Shown: positions 4,987 to 6,600 of the stretch, one piece after another
Position numbering within the stretch: the first letter of the stretch is position 1
Layout of the letters: each line of letters opens with the position of its first letter
DNA from: a virus
Lineage: Duplodnaviria; Heunggongvirae; Uroviricota; Caudoviricetes
IMG/VR virus record: IMGVR_UViG_2711768034_000009
Coordinates: 1-27,216 of that record
Reading direction: 5' to 3' (one strand)
DNA length: 27,216 nucleotides
Position numbers and translations under genes: made by a program
The notes under the pieces: generated by a model
The model's input: the letters and a program-made list of their open reading frames with translations, nothing else
Told to the model about the DNA's origin: nothing
Database searches by the model: none

Positions 4987-6600
4987 GTGGCTATTTTTGG
5001 CAGCGGGATAATGTTCCGTCAGGGGAAGTTCGTCTTCCTGATCCAGCGCTCGGATGATGGCACATGGTGCCAGCCGGGCGGGACGATAGAGCCGGGAGAG
5101 TTAGCCATAGACGCCGCACGGCGCGAGGTGCTGGAGGAAACAGGCTATCAGTACGATGGCCCGCTTACGCCGCACAGCGTACATGGTGACTACCTGACCT
5201 ACCGCGCCGACGTGCCGGAGCAATTCGAAGCGAAGATAAACGACGAATCGCTGGCCGCCGGATGGTTCCATATTGACGATCTGCCAAAGCCGCTTCATCA
5301 GCCATTCGCTGAAATGCTGGCGCAGCAGGCGCTCAACGAAACCGACGTGGCCGCGCTCATCGCTGACGGAACGCTCAGCAGCCCGCAATATTTTTACAAC
5401 ATGTGGATGTTCGCCATCCGGGTGACCGGAACAGGGGTTACCTGGCGATCTGCAGATCAGGAGATGACGTTCCGTAACCCGGACGACTATCTCACCCCTG
5501 AATTTCTCCAGCGGGTAGCTGGCGTACCACTTATCTGGCTTCACCCCGAAAAAAGAACACTTGATAGCGACGAGTTCTCAAAGCGCGTTATTGGCACCCT
5601 GACAAATGCCTGGGTTGCCGATAAGGGCGAAGTGTGGGCCGTTGCGCGTGTGTACGACGCCGAAGCTGCTGAAATTATGGCAACAAGGCAATTAAGCACC
5701 TCGCCAACTGTGAAGTTCTCAGAGGTTGCTCAATCAATCATTGTCGACGGTCAGCCTCTACTGGTGGAGCCATCCCCCGAGCTGCTCGACCACGTTGCAA
5801 TTTGTGAACAGGGCGTGTGGGACAAGCTCCTTGCCCCTACCGGTGTTAAATCTGATTCCATTCCTGAAGAGGCTGAAAAGATGGACGAGGAAAAAATCGT
5901 AGCGCTGATTAATAAGGCGATCGATGCGCGTTTGGCTAAGGCCGACGAAGAGAAGGAAGCGAAAGCCAAGGCTGACGCCGAAGAGGCCGCCAAGAAAGAA
6001 AAGGCTGACGCAGAAGGTAAAGAAGCGGAAGAGGCGAAAGCTAAAGCCGACGCGGAAGAGAAAGCCGCGAAGGAAAAAGCTGATGCTGAAGCCAAAGAAA
6101 AGGCGGATGCCGAAGAGGCTGAGAAAATGGCAAAAGAAAAAGCCGACTCTCAAATCCTCCAGGAAATTGCTGAGCTTCGCTCCCGCATTCCTACCGAACT
6201 GAGCGACGAAGAGCGCAACGAAGTTGCAGAAGCGCAGGTGAAAGCCGATAGCGTCTTCTCCAGCTTTGGCAAACGCGCCCCGATCCCGCTGTCCGGTGAA
6301 AAACCGATGGCGTATCGCCGCCGTCTGATGATTCAACTGCAGGAGCATTCTCCGGACTACAAAGCCGTAGATCTCTCTGCCATCGCTGATTCCCAACTGC
6401 TGAGCACTGCCGAAAAGCATATCTACGCTGATGCGCAGAAGGCGGCCAGCCTGTCAGTTGGTCCCGGTATGCTGCGCGAGATTAAGCGCGCCGATGCAAC
6501 CGGTCGCCAGATCAGCACCTTTGAAGGCGATCCCGCCGTCACCTGGGCGCCGTTCCAGTCTGGCAAGCGTCAGGTCACCAGTTTTAACAACCAGGCTTAA
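4987..6600 (+). CDS. Scaffold-like head assembly protein with an N-terminal Nudix hydrolase domain
   Basis: 537-aa ORF with a GTG start at 4987 preceded by AGGAG (4974-4978); the first ATG is at 5011. Residues 32-54 (nt 5080-5148), [23 protein letters not shown], match the full Nudix box Gx5Ex7REUxEExGU. Downstream are a globular region, a long Lys/Ala/Glu/Asp coiled-coil repeat and a C-terminal domain, which is scaffold-like and placed between portal and capsid genes. Confidence 0.6.
5935..6150. repeat. Imperfect tandem codon repeats encoding a KAKADAEE-type coiled-coil segment of the scaffold-like protein
   Basis: Reiterated gaagcgaaagcc/aaggctgacgc(c/g)gaagag units are visible in the DNA. 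They generate long spurious ORFs in other frames and on the opposite strand (5758..6420 minus, 5924..6202 plus). Confidence 0.6.

Follow-up and report, generated by a model that had tools for sequence, protein, structure and literature searches.

A Nudix hydrolase domain fused to a predicted prohead protease and scaffold in a temperate Klebsiella phage

The stretch of DNA analyzed here, positions 1 to 27,216 of the IMG/VR virus record IMGVR_UViG_2711768034_000009 and referred to as the window, contains the lysis-end, packaging, head and tail module together with the integrase of a temperate, contractile-tailed phage, and is 99% identical to Klebsiella phage vB_Kpn_Chronis. This study deals with one gene of its head region, an open reading frame (ORF) on the plus strand at 4987..6600 which starts with GTG at 4987, ends with TAA at 6598-6600 and matches phrog_6216 over its full length (E=1e-245). 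Its product of 537 amino acids (aa) consists of an N-terminal Nudix hydrolase domain, a middle domain with the fold of prohead maturation proteases and a scaffold-like C-terminal part which is probably also made as a separate protein. A preliminary description of this DNA, made from the sequence alone, had placed the gene between those of the portal (2732-4147) and the major capsid protein (7490..8521) and had taken its product for a head-assembly protein, in agreement with our results.

Layout of the gene and its product

The GTG start is preceded at a distance of 9 nt by a Shine-Dalgarno (SD) sequence, AGGAG, readable on the plus strand at 4973..4977, and the same sequence with the same spacing is found at the start in Yersinia phage vB_YenM_29.18. 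On the DNA level, the gene is 99.2% identical to gp4 of Chronis and 98.6% identical to its counterparts in the phages RothC and RothD. The protein shares 99.4% of its residues with Chronis gp4, for which the existing annotation reads "putative NUDIX hydrolase". Protein clusters (90% identity) with a match to the gene number more than 1,800. Chronis, RothC and RothD belong to the proposed family Felixviridae, which comprises temperate, gut-associated and very common Klebsiella prophages (bioRxiv 10.1101/2024.12.02.626457). The primers used in the KlebPhaCol preprint (bioRxiv 10.1101/2024.12.02.626457) for the detection of Felixviridae by PCR in sewage and stool match the window exactly at 5011-5031 and 6578-6598, so the marker called "gp7 putative virion structural protein" in that work is the Nudix-protease-scaffold gene, annotated there from an ATG at codon 9 and not from the GTG.

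The Nudix domain covers residues 4-112 (4996..5322, plus strand). The match to Pfam NUDIX (PF00293) over residues 9-112 is far above chance, scoring 60 bits at E=3.2e-16 where the cut-off is 21.1. An AlphaFold model built on 91 diverse homologues with 35-48% identity (mean pLDDT 82.7) gives a confident Nudix fold with pLDDT >90 across residues 4-112, and a Foldseek search with this domain returned 388 PDB matches at E<=1e-3. All 50 listed matches are Nudix enzymes, including NudC, NUDX1, MutT, CDP-Chase, Ap4A hydrolases, MTH1 and Dcp2, with a highest TM value of 0.72 for MutT (4dyw). An intact N-terminal Nudix domain, as proposed in the preliminary description, is thereby confirmed. The Nudix box (GX5EX7REUXEEXGU) lies at residues 32-54 (5080..5148, plus strand), and the catalytic positions G32, E38, R46, E47, E50, E51 and G53 all fit. 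The earlier claim that every position of the box matches has to be narrowed to these, since the final "U" is Tyr54 and not an aliphatic residue; Tyr or Phe occurs at this place in 68 of the 91 sequences and is the norm of the family. G32, E38, R46, E47, E50 and E51 are invariant in the 91 homologues and in 120/120 close sequences of the Klebsiella clade. Judged by this conservation, the Nudix domain at residues 4-112 has kept its catalytic residues intact and is under selection.

The catalytic residues stay fixed in a domain which is otherwise comparatively free to change. Among 119 close homologues from Klebsiella and Raoultella, 30% of the columns vary in the Nudix part (4987-5322) versus 10% in the protease part (5338-5856), that is about three times as many variable positions. 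Such a pattern would fit a host-facing module.

A variable linker at residues ~106-117 (5302..5337, plus strand) joins the Nudix domain to the protease and is a candidate release site, with a length of 10-21 residues across homologues. Relatives devoid of the Nudix domain begin exactly at this linker. Codon 116 (5332-5334), two before the invariant Glu118, specifies Met in 79 of the 91 homologues and Leu (CTC) in the window, and the Met at this position coincides exactly with the start of the Nudix-less relatives. It is probably a relic of an ancestral protease start, left behind after the Nudix domain was added upstream. A second internal start at residue 116 was considered and rejected, as the window carries the Leu codon and the Burkholderia loci show no ribosome-binding site there.

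The middle domain (residues ~118-290; 5338..5856, plus strand) shows the beta-rich fold of the prohead maturation proteases related to T4 gp21 and herpesvirus assemblin. Pfam PF09979 (DUF2213 / Pa193_gp24) is recognized on residues 159-276 with 25.3 bits versus a gathering threshold of 22, and residues 160-418 fit PHROGs 530 and 2229, each of which is labelled "head maturation protease". The position of the gene between portal and major capsid genes, with a scaffold fused to it, fits the placement of a prohead maturation protease as well. Three positions stand out as candidates for the active site: His186 (codon 5542..5544), invariant in alignments A1, A2, A3 and A5; Ser237/239 within Ser237-Thr238-Ser239 (codons 5695..5703), part of an STSP motif invariant in all alignments and in 120/120 close relatives; and the invariant His269 (5791..5793) as a possible third triad member, with E261 and D268 invariant too; all these codons are on the plus strand. 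His186, Ser239 and His269 are conserved without exception in the 91 homologues and in 120/120 close relatives, and their His...Ser...His order is that of assemblin-type proteases. On the sequence level, the part following the Nudix domain has no match among PDB sequences, a profile search with its Nudix-less alignment (A4) reached E=0.12 at best, and hhalign of the protease-domain profile with T4 gp21 gave no match (probability 0.2%). By modelled fold and conservation, the middle domain is a predicted prohead protease with His186 and Ser239 as candidate catalytic pair. One Pfam copy lists PF09979 as DUF2213, while a newer copy names it Pa193_gp24 for a putative scaffold; neither this family name nor the paper on phage Pa193 mentions a protease fold.

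The C-terminal part of the protein is probably also produced on its own. A nested in-frame gene on the plus strand at 5881..6600 would encode a scaffold of 239 aa (Met299-Ala537). Its ATG is preceded by an SD-like GAAGAGG at 5866..5872 (plus strand), with a distance of 8 nt. In the column of residue 299, Met is present in 82 of the 91 homologues and Val in four, in the midst of a variable linker. An SD-like core lies 5-15 nt upstream of the equivalent of Met299 in 7/7 loci from four independent lineages, compared with a background of 9-16% inside the same genes, and the amino acids at this place differ from lineage to lineage. The core reads GAGG in the window as well as in the Yersinia phages and Pantoea phage PdC23, AGGAG in the phage of Shewanella, AGGTGA in E. 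coli phage Rac-SA53 and AGGAA in the Burkholderia-type loci. The likely products of the gene are thus a minor full-length Nudix-protease-scaffold protein and a major scaffold of 239 residues. An in-frame internal start producing a scaffold which shares the C-terminus of the protease occurs in lambda C/Nu3 and Mu I/Z, where this common portion directs the protease into the procapsid. These systems resemble the target in the nested-start pattern and differ from it in having no extra enzyme domain and other protease families.

Following the protease, a short disordered junction (295-299) leads into a charged, helical or coiled-coil stretch of the KAKADAEE type at residues 301-400 (5887..6186, plus strand), for which AlphaFold predicts long helices at 301-333 and 358-400 and a low-confidence centre at 331-353. 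Its length varies between 90 and 171 residues among homologues. The folded C-terminal domain (residues 407-537; 6205..6597, plus strand; pLDDT ~90) is well predicted over 407-519 and conserved in 124 of 150 family representatives. It is presumed to be the capsid-binding part of the scaffold, by its position and by analogy to gp24 of Pseudomonas phage Pa193. The succession of a globular region, helices rich in Lys, Ala, Asp and Glu and a folded C-terminal domain is the layout given in the preliminary description. Two annotations of relatives found no support: the label "TolA protein" in Rac-SA53 (TIGR02794, 42 bits versus a cut-off of 59) arises as an artefact from the low complexity of the KAKADAEE stretch, and "glycosyl transferase" in the Yersinia phages is unsupported.

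The domain assignments bear on the view, held in the preliminary description, that the protein is scaffold-like and would carry the Nudix domain into the head in many copies. Structure and profile searches of both parts bore out the Nudix fold at the N-terminus and resolved the remainder into a protease fold plus scaffold. The scaffold assignment holds for residues 299-537 and fails for the middle at ~118-290. The assumption of many Nudix-bearing copies is put in doubt, as the probable nested start at Met299 would make the full-length form the likely minor species. A plain scaffold devoid of protease, with Nudix on every copy and hundreds of enzyme molecules per head, would still agree with the scaffold-like character of the C-terminal two-fifths and with the interpretation of Pa193 gp24, a member of the same Pfam family, as a scaffold. 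The prohead-protease fold of the middle domain with its invariant His and Ser contradicts it, and with the conserved internal start the majority of scaffold molecules should be made without a Nudix domain; we therefore regard this arrangement as extremely improbable.

The N-terminal slot in related phages

The protease domain served as query in an exhaustive HMMER search, which yielded 786 clusters (50% identity); the best 150 of them were surveyed for their N-terminal regions by local phmmer and regular expressions. In this sample, the Nudix domain stands directly upstream of the protease in 85 representatives (~57%), and 76 of these 85 keep the strict Nudix box. Another 54 begin directly at the protease, and a few carry other domains. 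The preliminary description had named ubiquity of the fusion in this capsid family, combined with a domain absent from virions and dispensable for infection, as a point against its proposal; what we find is a fusion in roughly half of the family. Its occurrence is scattered in patches across a rough protease-domain tree, and parsimony on the neighbor-joining tree counts at least 39 gains and losses of the Nudix domain, a number which is a rough indication only because the tree is poorly resolved. E. coli phage Rac-SA53 is a relative that naturally has no Nudix domain while its genes stand in the same order.

The N-terminal position can also be taken by other domains. Among the relatives it holds a PBECR1 RNase-like domain, LPD3 followed by Nudix (P0374), or an ADP-ribosyltransferase (ART) followed by Nudix (P0312 and P0361). 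In the ART-Nudix version, the order of terminase, portal, MuF-like gene, fusion and capsid gene is unchanged. The ART is of the Alt/VIP2 type where it precedes the Nudix domain at 3892-6402 of locus L009 (metagenome contig SRR12667961_555) and in P0312, P0315 and P0348, so that two enzymes form an N-terminal cartridge on one protease-scaffold in an otherwise identical head module. The interchangeability of Nudix, ART, PBECR1 and LPD3 at one slot supports a role as cargo. In our assessment the Nudix domain is accessory cargo and not assembly machinery.

The same survey bears on the possibility that the domain is a non-enzymatic pro-domain which regulates or inhibits the protease until assembly, or assists folding or assembly. 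Its place directly N-terminal to the protease is one often taken by pro-peptides, and the packing between the domains is uncertain in the AlphaFold model (pTM 0.50). For a purely structural role, the invariance of the metal-binding and catalytic residues in 91 diverged and 120 close sequences would be unexpected; a third of the homologues function without the domain, and related phages have it on the portal instead. Altogether, a pro-domain appears very unlikely.

Much of this architecture is on record. The Nudix-fused head protein has been known from curated records since the annotation of Burkholderia phage BcepB1A and the packaging hypothesis from Iyer et al. 2022, and Pfam includes the combination of DUF2213 with NUDIX in its listings (PMC8770471). 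BcepB1A gp26 ("head maturation protease, COG3566") has, like the target, a Nudix domain (PF00293, E=6e-17) followed by DUF2213 (E=2e-35), and gp25, annotated as "scaffold protein", is nested in frame in gp26, which is the arrangement predicted for the target. The neighborhood is also that of the window, with portal, MuF-like gene, fusion, small head protein and capsid protein, and hhalign relates gp26 to the target family with 99.5% probability over the Nudix domain and the first half of the protease. The two differ in that BLAST detects similarity in the Nudix domain only (48% identity), in the PHROG (3778 versus 6216) and in the Burkholderia host of BcepB1A. Phages Bcep781, Bcep1, Bcep43 and BcepNY3 (gp17-18) likewise carry a related Nudix domain (36-41% identity over ~110 aa) on a protein located inside the head. 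In contrast to the target, the carrier is the C-terminus of the portal and not the N-terminus of the protease, the DUF2213 protease is a separate protein (gp14), and there is no protease in cis for the release of the Nudix domain.

Packaging and delivery of the Nudix domain

Taken together, we lean modestly towards a three-part head-assembly polyprotein in which the scaffold tail would lead into the procapsid and the Nudix domain would be accessory cargo that is released, carried in the head and injected. The scaffold (299-537), in abundance, and the full-length protein, in lesser quantity, would co-assemble with the capsid protein by means of their shared C-terminus and would in this way bring protease and Nudix domain into the procapsid. 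It is reasonable to assume that the fusion places the Nudix domain there, in probably few copies. The protease would then digest the scaffold, cut itself in the flexible linkers and free the Nudix domain of ~12 kDa; a protease in cis appears as an obvious route for this release, a step which the preliminary description did not contain. The freed domain might remain in the head, enter the next host with the DNA and, ahead of all phage gene expression, hydrolyze a nucleoside-diphosphate-X compound. T4 achieves head localization with separate genes (gp21 protease and the head contents that undergo processing, gp22 scaffold, internal proteins and Alt) and a short capsid-targeting peptide and not by covalent fusion, and its gp21 has no detectable sequence similarity to the protease of the target.

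Delivery is indirectly suggested by three lines of evidence: the slot-mates of the Nudix domain are of a kind usually seen among injected effectors, members of the same Nudix clade occur on the portal, and Pa193 gp24 is found in virions. Fusion to a protein predicted to reach the head interior and interchangeable effector domains at one position are both traits of injected effectors, and both are seen here. Nudix domains fused to MuF, portal and capsid-processing peptidase have been proposed to be packaged and injected (Iyer et al. 2022, PMC9503650), and MuF-toxin fusions and polyvalent proteins are examples of head proteins with effector domains delivered at infection (PMC5512222, PMC9503650). 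Polyvalent proteins are multi-effector giants, whereas the target has one small enzyme on a protease-scaffold; LPD3 and PBECR1 occur in relatives of the target. Pa193 gp24 (PF09979) was found in mature virions with LC-MS (liquid chromatography coupled to mass spectrometry), bound under the capsid vertices, with residues 286-326 contacting the capsid interior at the fivefold vertices, and was interpreted only as a scaffold (PMC11456595). Like the target, it belongs to this Pfam family and is encoded immediately upstream of the genes for decoration and capsid proteins; it differs in having no Nudix domain and is too distant for detection by hidden Markov model (HMM) with the profile used.

The enzyme might instead act only late in the producing cell, for example by removing a nucleotide that is toxic or serves as an alarm signal, and be lost or degraded at maturation and never delivered; the fusion would merely ensure co-expression with, or proximity to, the protease. 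The gene is indeed a late structural gene, and fragments of protease and scaffold commonly exit capsids. According to a published report, CBASS is triggered by prohead proteases in late infection (PMC12991175), so that a countermeasure placed on the protease is conceivable. CBASS signals, for their part, do not have the pyrophosphate bond cut by Nudix enzymes. The presence of the same clade on three carriers in the head interior (protease N-terminus, portal C-terminus, MuF; PMC9503650) points to location inside the head and not to timing, and the ADP-ribosyltransferase, PBECR1 and LPD3 found in the same slot belong to classes described as injected effectors. A purely late action is thus possible, although on the unlikely side.

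Several points weigh against the packaged and injected cargo. About a third of the relatives have no Nudix domain, which is thus not needed for assembly. In HK97-type systems, the protease and scaffold fragments leave the capsid, and a freed Nudix domain could leave as well. His186 and Ser239 are candidate equivalents of the catalytic residues of T4 gp21 on the grounds of fold and invariance only. For the phage and its close relatives (Chronis, RothC/D, the Yersinia phages and PdC23), we found neither virion proteomics nor a cleavage map nor enzymology; the paper on the Yersinia phages and the preprint on KlebPhaCol contain no proteomics and do not mention Nudix, and the literature searches yielded no experimental test of a head-packaged Nudix enzyme. 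With respect to the substrate, none of the defined subfamilies (ADP-ribose pyrophosphatase, NudC, RppH, MutT, NudE) could be assigned, since the best Nudix match among the NCBIfam equivalogs reaches 24.8 bits versus a cut-off of 103 and the others lie far below theirs, and the structural neighbors (NudC, MutT, Ap4A hydrolases, MTH1, Dcp2) are too mixed to derive a substrate from them.

The relationship to the Nudix enzyme of T4 gives little further guidance. T4 NudE (e.1), for which the annotation gives FAD, diadenosine polyphosphates, ADP-ribose and NADH as substrates and which is encoded beside ipII and ipIII, is a free-standing protein, unlike the Nudix domain of the target. In BLASTP, only 34 residues around the box align between the two. 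T4 NudE belongs to phrog_1185 (E=5e-74), which the target matches at the box only, fitting phrog_1198 and phrog_15528 better. The statement that head-fused Nudix domains are NudE-like (Iyer et al. 2022, PMC9503650) was accordingly not reproduced for the target by BLASTP or PHROG.

The pairing of Nudix with an ADP-ribosyltransferase in relatives hints at NAD or ADP-ribose chemistry. Candidate substrates would be ADP-ribose- or NAD-derived molecules and capped or triphosphate RNA ends; delivery and most such substrates were put forward in the preliminary description as hypotheses, and are already in print (PMC9503650). A bolder and rather doubtful proposal is that the Nudix domain is a pre-made immune countermeasure, present in every virion, self-released and injected, which destroys pyrophosphate-containing immune molecules or strips RNA ends. 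Possible targets would be ADP-ribose-derived TIR/Thoeris signals, free ADP-ribose and NAD-derived products, or the NAD and triphosphate ends of host RNA, and the ART-Nudix relatives would then represent two-enzyme cartridges acting on the same NAD/ADP-ribose chemistry. Literature searches on Nudix enzymes in connection with Thoeris or anti-defence retrieved no experimental case, and in the searches made no virion-delivered enzymatic counterpart to the phage sponge proteins was found.

Surrounding genes and meaning for the phage family

Directly upstream of the fusion gene and following the portal gene, the plus strand encodes a MuF/SPP1 gp7-like head morphogenesis protein of 276 aa (4144..4974; phrog_324, E=1e-29). 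Downstream follow the gene of a 286-aa protein (6616-7476; phrog_6268, a family without known function) and that of the major capsid protein (7490..8521, plus strand; phrog_6671, E=1e-182; phrog_264, "major head protein"), the presumed substrate and partner of the protease-scaffold. The synteny around the fusion gene is kept in six other loci (L002, L003, L004, L005, L009 and L010). The 286-aa protein occupies the position of the decoration protein in Pa193. phrog_9998 matches its residues 165-238 as well as residues 55-127 of the tail sheath (10859-12253), so that by sequence a module of ~73 residues seems to be common to the two. Its homologue in PdC23 is annotated as "endosialidase", a label for which this analysis gave no support.

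Some features outside the head region were also recorded. An Rz-like i-spanin gene at 129-587 (phrog_13, E=9e-78) contains an embedded ORF of 63 aa in the +1 frame at 343-534, whose lipobox (LLGVSAC) and proline-rich stretch are typical of an embedded Rz1 o-spanin. A protein of 627 aa at the tape-measure position (13328-15211) carries a C-terminal lytic transglycosylase/endolysin-like domain at residues 475-615 (phrog_873, phrog_7182). Just past the tail-fibre genes, the minus strand encodes a tyrosine integrase at 24812-26008 (phrog_1, E=3e-81), which confirms the temperate lifestyle, followed by a minus-strand ORF at 26284-27216 of phrog_12662, a family without known function. With regard to host labels, some caution is advisable: Shewanella phage vB_Sb_QDWS and "Hujiaoplasma phage zrk29-1" (GenBank OK094664, OP650936), both of 47,902 bp and with identical match statistics, look like one genome deposited under two hosts, and an "Actinobacillus" phage likewise mirrors E. 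coli phage Rac-SA53 (KU052037, PP818812).

For annotation, the analysis concerns thousands of entries which say only "NUDIX hydrolase", "TolA" or "glycosyl transferase" and miss the identity of the head protease and scaffold, as well as PF09979, now named after a scaffold though its fold is that of a protease. The concept is not new; added here are the identification of the protease, support for the nested scaffold and the documentation of the cargo slot. The value lies in experiments rather than in discovery, and proof of delivery by the virion and of an anti-immune substrate would raise the interest. Should the packaging prediction be right, a common family of gut Klebsiella prophages, the Felixviridae, would carry a ready-to-use nucleotide hydrolase in the head. 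With isolates at hand (Chronis, RothC/D), a small domain and natural Nudix-less relatives as controls, these phages would then offer a simple and cultivable model for the way in which immunity based on nucleotides is disarmed by temperate phages during the first seconds of an infection.

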